Assembly: GCA_964016885.1 (NCBI GenBank)
Contig: OZ024755.1
Span: forward strand, 30,628,001-30,692,000
From: Eledone cirrhosa
Lineage: Eukaryota
Direction of reading: 5' to 3'
DNA length: 64,000 nucleotides
Shown in pieces: positions 12,797 to 63,471 of the stretch (its first letter is position 1; every line of letters starts with the position of its first letter). The notes beneath the pieces are model-generated. The model was not told the DNA's origin and did no database searches. It worked only from the letters and a program-made list of their open reading frames with translations. The translations under genes were made by a program, and so were the position numbers.

Positions 12797-13350
12797 AATC
12801 CACGAACACGTTCAATAATGTTGTGAAGATGTAGTAGCTGTCATGCTTGGAACGTCTTTTATTGTCGGTCAACTGGATGGTGGGTGATATGGAATTAAAC
12901 AATGAAAACATCATCAGTACCAGCAACACTACTACTTATCATTCTCAACGACAAACATATCCTGTTGTAGACATTCTCATGTTATATCAAAATAGTTTGT
13001 TAAAGAAGAACTCCATACTTAAACATATTAGAATTACACACCTGGTAGACACCCCCATTACAAATGCCATAGACTATTTGGAAAAATAATTAGGATTGCC
13101 TTCCACAAAACACTAATTAAGTTATTTGTGGAAAAATATTTAATGGGCTGTTTAGTTGCCAGCTGCAAGGAAAACACGATATTAAGCAAAATCTAATATC
13201 ATTTATTCCGACAAGTCTATGAGATAGAACTGGATATGCTTAGGTCTGAAATAGGCTAAAAGTAACTTGCTTAACTATTAGTTTTTCATGTCGATGGCGT
13301 CCATGAATAATTTCTTCACATATTTATTTTCTAAAACATGTTCATTTTGT

Positions 13351-13897
13351 GAGATCACAGCTCCGATACTATGTGCATGTGGTTAGAATGTCTCAGGAGA
13401 AAATCGCTGGAGAGTCACTCCAGGTGGAGCCACTACTTCTCTGAATTGAGAGATCACAGCTCCGATACTATGTGCATGTGGTTAGAATGTCTCAGGAGAA
13501 AATCGCTGGAGAGTCACTCCAGGTGGAGCCACTACTTCTCTGAATTGAGAGATCACAGCTCCGATACTATGTGCATGTGGTTAGAATGTCTCAGGAGAAA
13601 ATCGCTGGAGAGTCACTCCAGGTGGAGCCACTACTTCTCTGAATTGAGAGATCACAGCTCCGATACTATGGGCATGCGGTTAGAATGTCTCAGGAGAAAA
13701 TCGCTGGACGAATTTTACTGGACAAAACCAACCGGCAGGAGACCCAGTGGTAGACTCCAAGCAAGATGGTTAGATAACATCCATTGGTTGGTCACGCTTA
13801 GGATCCAGCCAGATCAGTTGGAGACAGTTGCTCCTGACAGAACCCACTGGAAGGAGTGTTTGAGGAATAAGTGGGCGAAGAAGAAGAAAAAGAAGAT
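13351..13897 (+). mobile_element. RTE-type LINE 3' end with (GAA)n tail and a 99-bp tandem amplification (x3.6) at its 5' junction
   Basis: Unit starts at 13351, 13450, 13549, 13648; KPTGRRPSGRLQARWLDNI and DRTHW resemble the RTE ORF C-terminus. Confidence 0.8.
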
Positions 13898-20143: not shown

Positions 20144-20195
<52 letters not shown>

Positions 20196-20255
20196 CAATA
20201 TCGGTCTCAACACACGTTTTCAGATAAAGAATCTTGCTAAACAAATTCAGAAACG

Positions 20256-20322
<67 letters not shown>

Positions 20323-20327
<5 letters not shown>

Positions 20328-20683
20328 AGAATATTTTCGAAACAGCGAGTGGGTTTGAAATTATTAGAAATGTAAGCTATCGCCGTATTTTGACTAAAGA
20401 AATTAAAGAAATTATTTAGCCTGGTAGTGGGGTTAAGAACCTTCGGAGAAATGGAAAAAGATGAGTATTGACGTACATGGGAGTCGAACCCACATCTTTG
20501 GTTATCCGGGGTGATGTGTTGGTGTAAATGGTAGCACAGTGTTCCGGATAACCAAAGATGTGGGTTCGACTCCCATGTACGTCAATACTCATCTTTTTCC
20601 ATTTCTCCGAAGGTTCTTAACCCCACTACCAGGCTAAATAATTTCTTTAATTTCTTTAGTCAAAATACGGCGATAGCTTACAT
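20323..20683 (-). mobile_element. Fold-back element with tRNA-derived head (candidate PLE-mobilised SINE)
   Basis: 140-bp arms 20370-20509 / 20544-20683 appear identical; 47-bp unpaired tail at 20323-20369; TA tracts on both sides. Confidence 0.8.
20513..20584 (+). pseudogene. tRNA-like head (72 nt) with Pol III A and B boxes; anticodon arm degenerate
   Basis: Acceptor gatgtgt/gtacgtc, D arm gtgt-aaatggta-gcac, T arm gtggg-ttcgact-cccat; A box tggtgtaaatgg, B box ggttcgactcc. Confidence 0.8.
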
Positions 20684-32907: not shown

Positions 32908-32911
<4 letters not shown>

Positions 32912-33230
32912 TTGCGAGGTTTTTTATATGAAATCGTGTGTCGAAACAAATATTGTTATACTTGGGGAGGAAAATATAGCACCACTGACGATGTTGCAGA
33001 TGTGCAACGAAAGATTTATGATAAACTATATATATGTGTTTGTGTCTATATTGTATCTGTATTATTTTTGACCGCCGGTCAGTCAATGGCAACATTGAGG
33101 ACCGAGTATATTAGATTACCGATATAAAAGACACAGAAGCGAGAAGCGAAAACCAACCAAACAGTGAGTGTGTTCTGTTATTAATTCTGGCAATATTACA
33201 CAAATATGACCCTCCCCAAGTATAACAATA
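32908..33230 (-). mobile_element. Fold-back element of the 52880-53496 family
   Basis: tattgttatacttggggagg / cctccccaagtataacaata termini; tail aaatcgtgtgtcgaaac shared with 52918-52933; between TA tracts. Confidence 0.72.
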
Positions 33231-33296
33231 TATATATATATATATATATATATTAATTCAAAATATTAACAAAATAGATATTCTTGTGATCAATTA

Positions 33297-38573: not shown

Positions 38574-39307
38574 ATGTGTGTATTTATGGATATATTTGTT
38601 TGTGTATTTTCTAGCTAATTGATGACCACATGAGGTAATTAGCATGCTTTATAAATTACTATAATTATGTTTTGTTCTAGTTGCATACTACGAAGCTGAT
38701 TCACTAGTTAAACGTATGTACCAGATTACAAATTACATTATTTACTTTTCTATGCTCCATTTAATATTGTAAAACACCAGGGAATTCAATAATGAATTGT
38801 ATTATACCTTCATTATTGTGAATTATAGGAGAAACAAAGATATTATATACTCGAGAAAATAATGAAAATCCGTCGGAAGTTTACATGAAAATGGAATGCA
38901 CACTTTTCTTCGTTCCACATCACTTATAAAGAGGTATGAAATTTATTGTAGAATATCTGCAATATAACAATGTATATATGTATATAAATATATATGTATG
39001 TATATATATATGTATATATAATATCATACAATATATATGTGTGTGTGTGGGTTATATTTGGGGATGGTCATGTAGCCAATATTGCTAATAGAAAGAAACA
39101 CAGGCACCATATAATTTTCACTTTATCTTCATTGTTCGTTATTCATTTGTTTATCAAAGTTCTTTCGTCACACATTCTGTGACTTCTACAATGGGCATTC
39201 TTTTTGTACCTTCTCTTTTTCCTGGTCTTAAACTTCTACTCAAAATAAAAAGACAAACAAAGACATGATAGAAAAAGAGGAGGCACAAAACAGATATTAT
39301 TATTGCG

Positions 39308-43072: not shown

Positions 43073-44774
43073 TGTATGTATGGAACTAACTGTTGAAGCG
43101 AAAAGAGCTCAACCATGGGACACCGGCTCTTTTACTTTGCGCAGAGGCGGTACCATGGCCAATGAAGTATATCCGAGACGTGGTTATTGCTAGTTGAAAA
43201 CTATTCTAAGTATTGAGTACTCTGTTGAATAATGGTCTAACTAATTTAATACTAGTTTGATGCTTATATATATGGGTGTGTGTGTGTTTATCGATAACTA
43301 TATGATGAAGTAAATAAATAAACAAATGAGGTAAACCTAATAATGGACATGTAACAACAAAGTAAAGTAACATACAATCTTCCATGTCAAATCCTAAAGG
43401 TTGTACTTGAGAGAAGAAAAGATAATTTAAAAATCACTTTAAACATGACCAATGCTACAAAAATGACTATCAAAATACGTCAGCACAATGATGGCATGAC
43501 ACCATATTATTTTCTTAGTAATCTTCAAATGTGTATTATTGTACTAAGATAAGTTTATATATAAAAGTCGATGAAAGCGAAACAAAGGATGTATTATATA
43601 TTAAAGTTTTAACTAGATTGAAAGCCTTTGAACGCAATATTGTATTGGTCTGCCTCTATGTTCTGCGTTTATATAACATCGAGGTTAACTTTGCTTTCGT
43701 GCTTTTATCAAAAAAAAAAAAAGAACTTTCACCAAATAAGAACATGGTTCCACTTAATCGACATCAAATAAGCTTTTTCGACAATATAAACGCCAAGCAG
43801 TATTGTTTCTTTCCCTTCTCTTGAACATTGGTGACGTAGAAAAGGGAGAACAGCTGCAAGACAAACTACTGGTCTTCCCTGATATATTTGTCCTCACCGG
43901 CACCCACATTGGTGGCAGATCAAGGATCTCTCGAAAGATTACTATAATGATAATGTACGAAATTAATTAAATTTGCTTTTATCATATTTTTGCATTGTTT
44001 AATCAGGGTGATAAGTCTGAGCCAATGACCTTCTCAGGATGTCTGGGGTTGTTGTTCATCTTCAAGTTGATGACTGTATGGACGAAAAGATGAAAAGATG
44101 AAAGGCAAAATTGACCTCGGTTATATTTGAATTCAGAGCGCAGTGAACTGAAATAAATAGCGAGGAATTTCTAATTCAGCACCGGAAAATTCTGCTATTT
44201 TTCCGCCATCCCTCTCCACAGTCAAACACCAAAACAAGAATGATAATAGAACTAACCTTAGACAGAGAAAAAATAATAGCCGTTTGCATAACAAGGCATT
44301 TATTGAAATATATTTTGACTCCATAACAACGTGTTAACTAAAATTAAATACCACTCACGTATAAGATTTTAATTCGGATAGATAATTGTCTTTATAAAGG
44401 TTAAATTAACCCAGTAACGATAGCGGTTCCTTTGATCAATTCCAATCTTTCTGTAATCTGTTAAGTCGCTGTTACGATACTAATGCGTAATGTGCCAGGC
44501 ACATCAAGATATGGCTGAAATAAATAGTACCAAATTTGTGTGCAAGTATAAATATACATATGTGTGTGTGTGTGTGTGTGTGAAAAGAGTCAAGACCCCG
44601 ACGGCTGTGGTCCGTCATATATATATATATATTGTTGTAATAATATTGCCAGAAATAATAACAGAACACACTCATTGTTTGGTTGGTTTTCGCTTCTGTA
44701 ACTTTTATATCTCCACAGATAATTTATTTGGCAATCAACGTTTATCATTGACTGACCAGCGGTTGAAAATACTG

Positions 44775-44807
<33 letters not shown>

Positions 44808-50554: not shown

Positions 50555-51131
50555 ATGGCGTGAAGCGACTGAGAGTTCAAGACCCGGCCCCCACTGGACA
50601 GGACACCATCAGTGTCAAGACAGGCCCTCGCAGTGCTAAAGTCTGTCTTAAGCCATTTAAGGCTCATTAGGTCGGTACTTATCCCAGTTATATGGCGTGA
50701 AGCGACTGAGAGTTCAAGACCTGGCCCCCACTGGACAGGACACCATCAGTGTCAAGACAGGCCCTCGCAGTGCTAAAGTCTGTCCTAAGCCATTTAAGGC
50801 TCATTAGGTCGGTACTTATCCCAGTTATATGGCGTGAAGCGACTGAGAGTTCAAGACCCGGCCCCCACTGGACAGGACACCATCAGTGTCAAGACAGGCC
50901 CTCGCAGTGTTCAAGTCTGTCTTAAGACATTTAAGGCTCATTAGGTCGGTACTTATCCCGGTTATATGGCGTGAAGCGACTGAGAGTTCAAGACCCGACC
51001 CCCACTGGACAGGACACCATCAGTGTCAAGACAGGCCCTCGCAGTGTTCAAGTCTGTCTTAAGCCATTTAAGGCTCGTTAGCTCGGTACTTATCCCGGTT
51101 ATATGGCGTGAAACGACTGAGAGTTCAAGAC
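50555..51131. repeat. 137-bp tandem repeat x4.2 attached to a SINE family B copy
   Basis: atggcgtga recurs at 50555, 50692, 50829, 50966, 51103. Confidence 0.95.
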
Positions 51132-52492: not shown

Positions 52493-52656
52493 TATATATA
52501 ATGTATTTTGCAATACACTTTATGCTTAATTAAAAGCATTTTGAAGACCGTATGCTATTGTTTTAGAGTAGTGACAAATTTGTCACTACTCTAAAACAAT
52601 AGCATACGATCTTCAAAATGCTTTTAATTAAGCATAAAGTGTATTGCAAAATACAT

Positions 52657-52664
<8 letters not shown>
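52493..52664. repeat. Loopless 172-bp palindrome between TA tracts
   Basis: Axis 52578/52579 (gacaaatttgtc); one visible mismatch. Confidence 0.93.
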
Positions 52665-52700
<36 letters not shown>

Positions 52701-52879
52701 TACGTATAAATAGCCAGTCAGAGTATAGCTTAAAGTAGCCAGTCAGAGTTAAAGCTTTCTCTGTTAATGTATTGTATATATAAATATATATATTCGTATT
52801 TATACATATACGTATTTATATGTATATATATATATAAATATATATATTCGTATTTATACATATACGTATTTATATATAT

Positions 52880-53493
52880 TTCGTTTCTGAATTTGTTTAG
52901 CAAGATTCTTTATCTGAAATCGTGTGTTGAAACCGATATTGTTATACTTTGGGAGGGTCATGTTGCCAATAAGAAACACACGCACCAGTTGCTTTCACTT
53001 CAATTTATTATATATCTATAAATTTATAAATTTACAAATTTACAAACTTATAAATTTCTGGTTGGTTGGTTGGTTCCACAACCAGATAGTTGTTTATATA
53101 TATAGTCATAGTCCTTTCGTCACACACTGTGACCTCTTCAGTGACTGGGGATTCCTTTCCTCGTTTCTGTGCCTTTCCTTTCTTCTATCTTACGCCATTT
53201 TGTTTCTGTGTGTGTCACACACAGAAACAAAATGGCGTAAGATAGAAGAAAGGAAAGGCACAGAAACGAGGAAAGGAATCCCCAGTCACTGAAGAGGTCA
53301 CAGAGTGTGTGACGAAAGGACTATGACTATATATATAAACAACTATCTGGTTGTGGAACCAACCAACCAACCAGAAATTTATAAGTTTGTAAATTTGTAA
53401 ATTTATAAATTTATAGATATATAATAAATTGAAGTGAAAGCAACTGGTGCGTGTGTTTCTTATTGGCAACATGACCCTCCCAAAGTATAACAA

Positions 53494-53496
<3 letters not shown>
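52880..53496 (-). mobile_element. Hammerhead-bearing 561-bp palindrome (52936-53496) plus 56-bp tail
   Basis: Axis at 53215; tail 52880-52935 matches the reverse complement of 20191-20260; TA tracts on both sides. Confidence 0.9.
53284..53328 (+). ncRNA. Minimal type I hammerhead-like ribozyme (mirror copy at 53104-53146 minus)
   Basis: agtca-CTGAAGA-g-gtcaca-gagtg-tgtgac-GAAA-ggac-TA-tgact; perfect stems I and II, one extra nucleotide after the core. Confidence 0.72.
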
Positions 53497-53577
<81 letters not shown>

Positions 53578-53718
53578 TATAAATATATATATTCGTATTT
53601 ATACATATACGTATTTATATATACATATATGTATATATATATATATATATATATACGTATTTATAAATACATATATGTGTGTGTGTATATATGTATGTAT
53701 ATATATATATATATACAC

Positions 53719-59086: not shown

Positions 59087-59910
59087 TGAGAGATGTGGCT
59101 AGCGGGAGAGACGGAGGCAGTGACAGTGGTAGTTTGGTTCCTTTGTGTTCGGACCTGGTGCATATGAGAGATGGGCAGAGCAGGAGAGACGGAGGCAGTG
59201 ACAGTGGTAGTTTGGTTCCTTTGTGTTCGGACCTGGTGTATATGAGAGATGGGCAGAGCGGGAGAGACGGAGGCAGTGACAGTGGTAGTTTGGTTCCTTT
59301 GTGTTCGGACCTGGTGTATATGAGAGATGGGGAGAGCGGGAGAGACGGAGGCAGTGACAGTGGTAGTTTGGTTCCTTTGTGTTCGGACCTGGTGTATATG
59401 AGAGATGGGCAGAGCAGGAGAGACAGAGGCAGTGACAGTGGTAGTTTGGTTCCTTTGTGTTCGGACCTGGTGTATATGAGAGATGGGGAGAGCGAGAGAG
59501 ACGGAGGCAGTGACAGTGGTAGTTTGGTTCCTTTGTGTTCGGACCTGGTGTATATGAGAGATGGGGAGAGCAGGAGAGACGGAGGCAGTGACAGTGGTAG
59601 TTTGGTTCCTTTGTGTTCGGACCTGGTGTATATGAGAGATGGGGAGAGCAGGAGAGACAGAGGCAGTGACAGTGGTAGTTTGGTTCCTTTGTGTTCGGAC
59701 CTGGTGTATATGAGAGATGGGGAGAGCGAGAGAGACGGAGGCAGTGACAGTGGTAGTTTGGTTCCTTTGTGTTCGGACCTGGTGTATATGAGAGATGGAG
59801 AGGGCGGGAGTGGTAGTTTGGTTCCTTTGTGTTCGGACCTGGTGTATATGAGAGATGGGGAGGGCGGGAGTGGTAGTTTGGTTCCTTTGTGTTTGGACCT
59901 GGTGTATATG
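59087..59910. repeat. 78-bp minisatellite (~9 units plus two shorter units) inside the GC-rich dispersed repeat 58895-59940
   Basis: 26-aa periodicity in several ORF frames; flanks match 55820-56090. Confidence 0.95.
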
Positions 59911-60329
59911 TATATGTTTCACGGGGACACACACACACTGAGACATTAACATATGTACATACACATTTAAACTATCAGTCAATCTATCTAAGTTTACAAA
60001 AGTGTGGAATATTCACATGTGTCCTTCAGCAATTCAATTCAATATTATAACCTTAGAATTAACCACAAGCATTTCTTTAATAAGTTTAATAAGGTACGCA
60101 GGAGTAGGGGAAATTTCCCATGATCTTTATAGAACTTTCCATATATATCTACCTGATCATTATCTTGAATGGGTTTTCGAACCATTAAAGGTTCTCATCA
60201 GAAGATATGTATATCACATAAACAACTATAAGGAAATCGTAACTGAGAGGCTTATGTACTCTCTCGTTTATAGTATTATTCCTGAAATACACATTCCAGT
60301 TTGCATACTGTTAGCATTCGTGTCGTTAG

Positions 60330-62155: not shown

Positions 62156-62245
62156 ATGTACTTGCAGAGCGAAAAATAATAAATTCCAACAAAACTAGTG
62201 ATGTTCTGCGCCAATAAAATATATTTCATGCCAACCAATAAAATA

Positions 62246-63397
62246 ACCTCCAACACAAATACTCGGGCATTTGTATAGAGACATCAGGGCAACAAGAAGC
62301 TGACCATTGATCCCAAACTCCTGCAAGATCTTTCTTTCAAATTTCTGTACGTTCACTAATATGTTTCGTGTAATACTTTCACTTATTTCCCCTATTCCAC
62401 CGTAGATCATAGCTTTTCTTTTATAATACTTGTGTGATCTGGTTGTAACGTTGTTGTGTGTAAAATATATTTCATGCCAACCTCCAACACAAATACTCGG
62501 GCATTTGTATAGAGACATCAGGGCAACAAGAAGCTGACCATTGATCCCAAACTCTTGCAAGATCTTTCTTTCAAATTTCTGTACGTTCACTAATATGTTT
62601 CGTGTAATACTTTCACTTATTTCCCCTATTCCACCGTAGATCATAGCTTTTCTTTTATAATACTTGTGTGATCTGGTTGTAACGTTGTTGTGTGTAAAAT
62701 ATATTTCATGCCAACCTCCAACACAAATACTCGGGCATTTGTATAGAGACATCAGGGCAACAAGAAGCTGACCATTGATCCCAAACTCTTGCAAGATCTT
62801 TCTTTCAAATTTCTGTACGTTCACTAATATGTTTCGTGTAATACTTTCACTTATTTCCCCTATTCCACCGTAGATCATAGCTTTTCTTTTATAATACTTG
62901 TGTGATCTGGTTGTAACGTTGTTGTGTGTAAAATATATTTCATGCCAACCTCCAACACAAATACTCGGGCATTTGTATAGAGACATCAGGGCAACAAGAA
63001 GCTGACCATTGATCCCAAACTCTTGCAAGATCTTTCTTTCAAATTTCTGTACGTTCACTAATATGTTTCGTGTAATACTTTCACTTATTTCCCCTATTCC
63101 ACCGTAGATCATAGCTTTTCTTTTATAATACTTGTGTGATCTGGTTGTAACGTTGTTGTGTGTAAAATATATTTCATGCCAACCTCCAACACAAATACTC
63201 GGGCATTTGTATAGAGACATCAGGGCAACAAGAAGCTGACCATTGATCCCAAACTCTTGCAAGATCTTTCTTTCAAATTTCTGTACGTTCACTAATATGT
63301 TTCGTGTAATACTTTCACTTATTTCCCCTATTCCACCGTAGATCATAGCTTTTCTTTTATAATACTTGTGTGATCTGGTTGTAACGTTGTTGTGTGT
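62246..63397. repeat. 234-bp tandem repeat x~5, near-identical, containing a LINE RT-like fragment
   Basis: 78-aa periodicity; KILQEFGINGQLLVALMSLY resembles RTE RT WxxLxxxGIxGxLLxxIxSLY. Confidence 0.93.
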
Positions 63398-63471
63398 AAC
63401 ACATAAATATATGTGTAACACTTTAATATTTTTACGTTTGTTCAGTATTTTCTGTTAATTCTGTTCCCCTT

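Follow-up and report, generated by a model that had tools for sequence, protein, structure and literature searches.

A 561-bp palindrome in the Eledone cirrhosa genome is a head-to-head Penelope-like element insertion, with edited sister copies that constrain how such pairs form

Introduction

For insertions of EN+ Penelope-like elements (PLEs) a layout has been described, in which a partial tandem pLTR is accompanied by an adjacent inverted 5′-truncated copy and a one-sided tail, in (TA)n targets (PMC8557442, PMC3846280). The discussion of PMC8557442 treats the origin of the inverted pLTRs and tails as an open question. For Poseidon PAc of Anolis, two internal RNA start sites were found in vitro to bound the tail, with both strands extended, and the priming sites are not homologous to the cut DNA; hammerhead mutants of this lizard PLE still insert, and the main text of that paper is silent on how inverted arms form (PMC11167929). 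Minimal type I hammerheads occur in metazoan PLE pLTRs, where pairs on opposite strands 100-700 bp apart have been noted (PMC4209133), and recent Penelope activity has been described in an octopus genome (PMC13282606).

Here we analyze a 64,000-nt stretch of contig OZ024755.1 of Eledone cirrhosa (positions 30,628,001 to 30,692,000, hereafter the window), which contains a long palindrome first described in an earlier note made from the sequence alone. The layout of this palindrome is one already published for PLEs, and the locus is an ordinary PLE insertion. We describe its parts and its parent element, and then its relatives across the genome.

Results

The palindrome is a head-to-head pair of truncated pLTRs

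Arm alignment bore out the near-loopless 561-bp palindrome with a single-base centre that had been read from the letters. It spans 52936-53496, and its arms, 279 nt (52936-53214) and 281 nt (53216-53496) long, meet at T53215. The sole mismatch between the arms is a 2-nt indel in hammerhead loop II. In the coordinates of the parent element (ORF ATG = +1), the locus joins -254..+86 head to head with -253..+26. The outer ends of the arms are the first 9 codons of the parent ORF and the one-sided tail is the next 20 codons, arranged as follows.

52775 to 52875, no strand: left-flank target, (AT)n-rich
52876 to 52935, minus strand: PLE tail, 60 nt, ORF codons about 10-29 (+27..+86), unpaired, ending in AATAT and followed by (AT)n
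52936 to 53215, minus strand: left arm, pLTR -254..+26, centre base included, with the A of the ORF ATG (+1) at 52961
53215, no strand: head-to-head junction, within the hot spot -254..-241 described below; candidate transcript 5′ end
53216 to 53496, plus strand: right arm, pLTR -253..+26, without a tail, followed by (AT)n, with the ORF ATG at 53471
53497 to 53715, no strand: right-flank target, (AT)n/(ATAG)n

The tail was identified by tblastn of residues 1-29 of the parent protein, P0002, onto 52961-52875 (100% identity), and in tandem units of the parent the same 60 nt run on into the ORF. Both flanks are (AT)n, the setting in which target-site duplication was sought. We conclude that the 561-base palindrome is a head-to-head pair of 5′-truncated pLTRs of a PLE in (AT)n. 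The likeness to the published EN+ layout extends to a pLTR that ends in the first ORF codons, a tail made of the following codons, the head-to-head inverted copy, the (TA)n targets and the tandem arrays, with a tail of 60 nt here compared to 30-40 nt in published PLEs. A separate short inverted repeat with arms of about 75 nt lies just left of the palindrome, at about 52540-52660.

The parent is an EN+ PLE with a C-terminal GIY-YIG endonuclease

We located family copies in the 3.0-Gb genome by exact sequence patterns. Copies of the palindrome arm extend upstream into a coding body, and the parent is a tandem unit of about 4.27-4.28 kb with an intact 1270-aa ORF.

L079, 431 to 4243, minus strand: intact ORF of the parent unit, encoding P0002

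The surrounding array (L077-L080; G000:C6, about 65.203-65.231 Mb) holds seven pLTRs head to tail, in one truncated unit and then six near-identical 4.27-kb units, and ends at +26 in (AT)n; the ORF is intact in one unit and frameshifted in the others. Both the arm end and the tail end of the palindrome stop, in the parent unit, at AATAT|CG. The 27-nt pLTR end has 26,134 exact occurrences genome-wide.

Searching Pfam with full-length P0002 returned no match. The GIY-YIG domain at its C-terminus scored 23.3 bits against a Pfam cut-off of 22.6, and the RVT_1 match was sub-threshold (22.9 against 29.6). A structure model from 100 aligned proteins (pLDDT 92.6) had an RT closest to telomerase (Z 14.7, rmsd 3.5, 357 aligned), with TERT filling the top 5 Foldseek rows and the top 14 VIA rows (Z 13.4-14.7; next 12.5). 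TERT was reached by this fold search and not by PDB sequence searches with the single protein or a profile, and the telomerase likeness is one of fold, not of tree. C-terminal residues 603-702 of the model match I-TevI (Z 9.8). The CCHH of the endonuclease comprises C1171, C1176, H1198 and H1214; C1171 is conserved in 100/100 aligned proteins and both histidines in 99/100, and the second cysteine moves with spacer length. All four cysteines of the linker before GIY-YIG (Cx4CxxCx7C) are conserved in 99-100/100. RT motifs 3 and 4 lie 136 aa apart (134-140 across the 100 proteins), with about 70 extra residues between them in 100/100, conserved as CP.R...Gr.P.iTg...W. P0002 also has an N/T/H-rich low-complexity insert near residues 245-470. 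The nearest named homologue among the 120 listed is from Octopus vulgaris (69% identical).

The parent is an EN+ PLE: it combines a single ORF for RT and C-terminal GIY-YIG, a telomerase-like RT fold, CCHH, a tandem or partial-tandem pLTR that holds the first ORF codons and a hammerhead motif, and a one-sided 60-nt tail with an inverted 5′-truncated copy. Among the named clades, it resembles the Nematis rows of PMC8557442 (Fig. S1, S2) in its C-terminal GIY-YIG, CCHH and short Cx4CxxC-x7-C linker, the last agreeing with the reduced Cx2-5CxxC linker of Nematis in a by-eye comparison with the Fig. S2 rows. However, canonical C-terminal EN+ RTs such as that of Nematis have no insertion in the fingers, and the distance between motifs 3 and 4, counted by eye in the published rows, is about 66-68 aa in Penelope and Nematis (about 68 for the Nematis comparison) and about 120 in human TERT, compared to 136 here. 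Because of the roughly 70 extra residues, we do not file the parent as Nematis. We rejected Neptune, in which about 25-30 aa separate the CxxC from the pre-GIY cysteine (7 aa here). The parent likewise does not share the CxCx5C linker, lack of CCHH and length under 3 kb of Hydra, nor the N-terminal endonuclease and lack of a canonical hammerhead of Naiad. It may represent a PLE lineage without a name so far, in which a C-terminal endonuclease of Nematis type is combined with an RT whose fingers contain a telomerase-sized insertion.

Copies end at two fixed sites and carry one tail per pair

Our position-ordered sample comprised the exact matches to the pLTR end on contig C1, up to the 100th, a choice that favours well-preserved ends. 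It yielded 37 pair calls, of which three (other-family or mis-chained) were dropped and 34 kept; in the remaining sets we dropped 3 of 41 pair calls and removed 10 duplicate loci of the same pairs. Pairs whose chain breaks at -386 or outruns the fetched flank were left uncounted, and L159, L161 and L183 among them have one tail. An inverted partner was not called in about half of the sampled loci.

Nearly all arms ended exactly at +26 (58) or +86 (49), together 107/116, and 102/116 run into (AT)n. Exactly one tail was present in 33/34 position-ordered head-to-head pairs, the exception having both tails and no pair having none. The tail is described as "optional" or "often at one end" in published PLEs. 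Among the one-tail pairs it lies on the shorter arm in 15 and on the longer arm in 11, and 7 are near-symmetric. Several tail-less single arms (L144, L146, L177) have an inverted tail remnant of 7-15 nt at their 5′ end.

Arm starts span -3985 to +59, in line with the suggestion that hairpin length is fixed per insertion. Near-symmetric pairs are in excess (7/34, compared to 1.6 by permutation; p = 0.0006). Arm divergence does not mark symmetric pairs as the younger class: its median is 0.0167 in symmetric pairs (n = 21) and 0.0160 in asymmetric pairs (n = 32; p = 0.76). The arms overlap at the junction in 17/34 pairs, indicating microhomology. Rare alleles are shared within pairs 73 times against 3.3 expected, 21 of these from L171; alleles strictly private to a pair are shared in only 8/70 pairs (9 alleles, vs 116 unshared). 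For unedited pairs, allele sharing shows the same subfamily and does not establish a common molecule, and the shared private alleles of these pairs, L171 left out, have no A>G bias (0/9).

Separately, L004 (G000:C7:86756556-86759836) has the element at the centre of an inverted duplication of more than 1.1 kb (99.9%) that includes host flanks. It has tails on both arms and is possibly a fold-back rearrangement seeded by the element.

Junctions pile up at the palindrome's centre

Inversion breakpoints are variable across the genomic copies, as had been proposed, but with a hot spot at the palindrome's own centre. Its exact 27-nt centre is common to 23 loci. These loci belong to several subfamilies, with arms matched within each locus, and the centre therefore recurs independently rather than descending from a master palindrome that moved. 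For junction counts, we used patterns in which both arms had to end just upstream of a given 12-mer. About 416 symmetric junctions, including a few overlapping double counts, fall at -254..-241, within about 17 nt. Control sites gave 23 junctions at -184 (55 nt downstream), 6 at -297 (55 nt upstream) and 47 near the predicted hammerhead cut, where most of the arms met within a TA run. An intact motif is rarer at the hot spot than at the controls (26/56 vs 52/65 and 38/48). As the upstream control at -297 adjoins a CA tract too, such a tract is not enough to account for the hot spot, whose centres consist of TG runs joined to CA runs with no overlap (gap 0). The earlier note had held that copies with one fixed centre would tell against it; the 23 identical centres and the roughly 416 junctions within about 17 nt go part of the way there. 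Among 20 hot-spot loci, all 16 that could be resolved have one tail.

Just upstream of the hot spot, full copies have a GCGC palindrome that we take to be NRF1-like. About 14 nt downstream from the junction is a second putative promoter motif:

53228 to 53237, plus strand: YY1-like motif with a GCCAT core on the other strand, mirrored at 53193-53202

In human L1, a YY1 site at nt 9-20 sets the transcription start (PMC11602158). The junction pile-up and the YY1-like motif suggest that -254 is probably the 5′ end of the transcript and that at this locus both copies ran off the end of the RNA. A cap-derived G before -248 was not found in a hand count of 100 listed bases (28 G, 34 A, 38 T), and about half of the 30 loci inspected for it were not true ends.

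Two edited pairs fix the template strand

Three of the 327 arms scanned stand out, with 25-36 A>G changes and no T>C in the sense of the element. Two are the pair of arms at one locus and the third is one arm of a pair at another:

L171, G000:C1:18412900-18414200: dense sense-strand A>G clusters
L243, G000:C1:2082500-2091500: dense sense-strand A>G clusters

These are two loci in roughly 75 sampled insertions. The L171 arms have 25 and 36 sense A>G changes and 0 T>C, and are concordant at 38/40 A sites (p = 1.6e-8), two edited sites differing; compared to the other edited locus, concordance is only 21/39 (p = 0.5). The L243 arms share 32/32 A>G changes and 86/86 unchanged A, or 118/118 sites. 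The edits are confined to about -259..-69 of the pLTR, and -68..+86 is unedited, perhaps because a bound protein shielded it. Editing tends to spare A preceded by G (7/18 vs 34/49, p = 0.046). ADAR disfavours A with a 5′ G. We infer that the clusters reflect A-to-I editing of the RNA before reverse transcription.

L171 and L243 both carry the tail on the shorter arm, which means that each arm holds sequence absent from the other; the L171 long arm also has additional edited sites absent from the short arm. For these two loci, the edits exclude an antisense template and two different RNAs. Both arms of the edited loci trace to one template, likely a single RNA primed twice. By themselves, the shared edits fit both two primings and a hairpin intermediate whose centre was lost afterwards. 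The L243 locus may be compound, as the upstream and downstream pLTRs of its long arm differ as subfamily variants.

In the openly searchable literature we found no description of edited PLE pairs, of a per-pair tail rule or of this RT insertion. The passages of PMC8557442 and PMC3846280 on insertion structure do not describe the junction hot spot or edited pairs seen in this family.

The hammerhead motif is intact in most arms, and edited copies span its predicted cut site

The hammerhead attributed to each arm was recovered as a minimal type I motif:

53284 to 53328, plus strand: minimal type I hammerhead motif, a descriptor match with a predicted cut after 53323
53104 to 53146, minus strand: matching motif on the left arm, loop II shorter by 2 nt

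The right-arm motif has a 5-bp stem I, CUGAAGA, an extra G, a 6-bp stem II, GAAA, a 2-bp helix III with a GA loop, and CUA. The descriptor gave three matches in the window (the two palindrome arms and 60161-60201) and a mean of 0.0 per window in 30 block-shuffled windows. Rfam at its gathering score made no hammerhead call on the palindrome motif, and folding of the 53-nt motif was no better than that of shuffles (z = -1.14). The core is intact in 57/65 family arms, and the variants retain NUH. The motif resembles those of PMC4209133 in that stem I is short and stem II long, with an additional base ahead of the latter, and in its G10.1-C11.1 and rudimentary helix III; unlike them, it has a predicted helix III that can pair with itself only if tandem G-A mismatches are allowed. 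The third match, on the minus strand at 60161-60201, is an unrelated minimal motif (CUGAUGA, 5-bp stem II, 6-bp stem I) and is probably the first hammerhead family of the earlier note.

A transcript across the whole palindrome is predicted to fold into one 280-bp stem with the hammerhead paired to its complement; the locus is therefore unlikely to be an active double ribozyme, unless transcription were to run outward from the centre. Pattern counts across the genome showed no junction pile-up at the predicted cut, on which ground we rejected the cut site as the origin of the 5′ ends. The edits at L171 and L243 destroy the hammerhead core, yet the edited copies span the cut site.

The palindrome is probably young

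At the 272 sites compared, the arms show 0 substitutions; across 57 pairs, the median divergence between arms is 0.02. An arm is identical to the ORF-intact unit at 273/281 positions (97%), and three variants uncommon in the family are present in both arms. As had been supposed, the copy is probably young, although conversion between the arms could mimic youth. The stated reason, that long perfect palindromes are normally unstable, fares less well: symmetric pairs with 4-9% arm divergence persist.

Reads and contigs, aligned to the element only, confirmed the family in three runs of one organism label. The palindrome's rare alleles appear at low depth in a run that is possibly the source of the assembly. 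No record spanning the palindrome centre is among the matches listed in these alignments.

Related pieces in the window belong to two PLE families

Four further pieces had been grouped with the palindrome as five fragments of one set:

20191 to 20266, plus strand: same-family piece consisting of tail alone (+16..+86), with (AT)n runs on either side, 69/71 identity
32908 to 33233, no strand: second PLE family, same layout, a short inverted arm with tail and a longer arm
39051 to 39290, minus strand: old, diverged relative of the palindrome family's pLTR, with stem II and GAAA retained and the CUGA box decayed
44640 to 44790, minus strand: second-PLE-family fragment, not inverted, 138/196 to the 32908-33233 copy

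The pieces are real, but the set mixes two families, 32908-33233 and 44640-44790 belonging to the second; they match the palindrome family at 147/260 and 64/110 gapped columns, respectively. In the 32908-33233 copy, the short tailed arm is 32908-32970 on the minus strand, and the longer arm, on the plus strand, has its own hammerhead core. No inverted partner of 39051-39290 was seen. The inverted layout occurs, within the compared pieces, only at 32908-33233 and in the palindrome itself. The variable inversion points claimed for these fragments are thus not shown by them alone; junctions do vary genome-wide, but with the 23 loci that share the palindrome's exact centre.

The second family has a similar ORF start and tail and often lies in the same (AT)n runs beside copies of the palindrome family; L006, L011, L090 and L095 are examples beyond the window. 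Other features of the window include a U4 snRNA-like copy at 43133-43258 (plus strand, 67.7 bits, 3′ part decayed), a tRNA-like stretch at 20513-20584 (plus strand, 33.7 bits), perhaps a SINE head, and young minisatellite arrays at 50555-51131 (period 137 nt), 59087-59910 (78/60), 62245-63399 (234) and 13347-13708 (99).

Discussion

The reading that we favour, and hold to be fairly probable, is that the enzyme nicks both (AT)n strands and primes two cDNAs on one sense RNA. The transcript would start near -254 in the pLTR and continue past +86 into the ORF. The GIY-YIG domains of an enzyme dimer would nick both target strands, and each ATAT 3′ end of the target would pair with one of the two AAUAU|CG sites (+26 and +86, 60 nt apart); with one site used per arm, each insertion would receive one tail. 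Both RTs would then copy in the direction of the RNA's 5′ end. At 53215 both would have run off, giving equal arms, and elsewhere the two would stop at different points, giving unequal arms. The two cDNA ends would be joined bluntly or through short microhomology and the second strands filled in, the hammerhead being carried along uncut. Two primings on one sense RNA would account for the ends, the tail rule, the shared edits and both symmetric and asymmetric pairs by one rule. As for a conserved RNA hairpin at the start sites, predicted folds there were weak.

A comparable process is L1 twin priming, in which two primings on one RNA at two target nicks, followed by joining of the cDNA ends, yield a non-duplicated 5′ inversion. 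In the PLE, by contrast, the starts would lie 60 nt apart and the same RNA stretch would be copied twice. The in vitro results on Poseidon PAc (PMC11167929) are similar in the two internal RT starts that bound the tail, the AT-rich target and the dispensable hammerhead; Poseidon PAc belongs to another clade, and its priming sites lack homology to the cut DNA, whereas the two start sites of the present family, each with AAUAU|CG at its end, match the (AT)n target, a difference that tells against the favoured reading.

The main competitor is a fold-back, in which the 3′ end of the cDNA would prime itself, the hairpin would be resolved at the other AATAT|CG site and later central deletions would create the asymmetry. 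It accounts for arm identity and shared edits, fits the excess of symmetric pairs and the microhomology at many junctions (17/34 overlap), and has a precedent in PMC8557442, where the tail is put down to endonuclease resolution of an intermediate. However, a tail on the short arm is absent from the long arm; unless something was deleted later, neither of the two could then have served as the only template for its partner, and the fold-back needs such a deletion in every one of these cases (15/34). Near-identical arms can differ in length by kilobases (L148, d 0.003, 1.7 kb; L032, d 0.005, 3.3 kb), arm divergence does not make the symmetric pairs the younger class (p = 0.76), and the TG/CA centres at the hot spot join with no overlap. 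We regard the fold-back as unlikely, if still worth weighing. Of the proposal that an RT template switch explains the palindrome better than a MITE, the retroelement origin holds up, and a single switch or fold-back fits poorly with 15/34 pairs tailed on the short arm.

It is very improbable that the palindrome is a non-autonomous mobile unit, MITE-like or a hairpin retrozyme, that was copied whole. The exact centre in 23 loci is what such copying would leave, but these loci fall in different subfamilies with arms matched per locus, and the tail side varies among 12 intact pairs (9 on the -254 arm, 2 on -253, 1 on -261). The ends of the palindrome are ORF codons and are asymmetric, and hardly any other family member has the three variants common to its arms (e.g. 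depth 47 of 334,354 at 53240). A MITE would have symmetric termini, a fixed internal structure and copying at the DNA level; we rejected it on the asymmetric ends, the variable junctions and the RNA-type edits in sister copies. An animal non-LTR retrozyme, as described in bioRxiv 10.64898/2026.07.22.740005 (head-to-tail non-coding monomers, each with a hammerhead), was rejected as well, since the locus joins two fragments of a coding parent head to head.

Self-priming on an antisense RNA template is the published reading of palindromes at inverted Penelope junctions (PMC3846280). We give it hardly any credence for this family, as an edited antisense template would give sense T>C, and both edited loci have A>G and 0 T>C in both arms. 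Finally, an assembly or sequencing artefact in the form of a chimeric fold-back read would be compatible with the missing read or contig bridging the palindrome centre among the matches listed, but is negligible in view of the one-sided tail, the 2-nt indel between the arms, the thousands of similar structures whose arms have diverged and whose ends are fixed, and the presence, in contigs of a public run, of further head-to-head joints from this family.

Returning to two primings on one RNA, we put forward a wider picture tentatively, as a possibility a little short of even. The ADAR-edited copies would be natural barcodes, showing that a PLE dimer starts one cDNA for each target strand, from two fixed sites on a single uncut sense RNA. 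Perfect palindromes would be double run-offs that mark the transcription start and feed back as dsRNA that gets family transcripts edited, and the parent may be an unnamed PLE lineage.

The significance of the palindrome lies in family-level constraints on how insertion works, with the edited pairs and the predicted start site foremost among them. PLE insertion is constrained by one tail per pair, by fixed start sites that match the target and by a hot spot that predicts the start of transcription. The edited pairs fix the template strand and indicate that RNA with a destroyed hammerhead core was still inserted. The intact ORF is usable for in vitro work, and long dsRNA could arise in the host animal from the near-perfect palindromes, which number in the hundreds.
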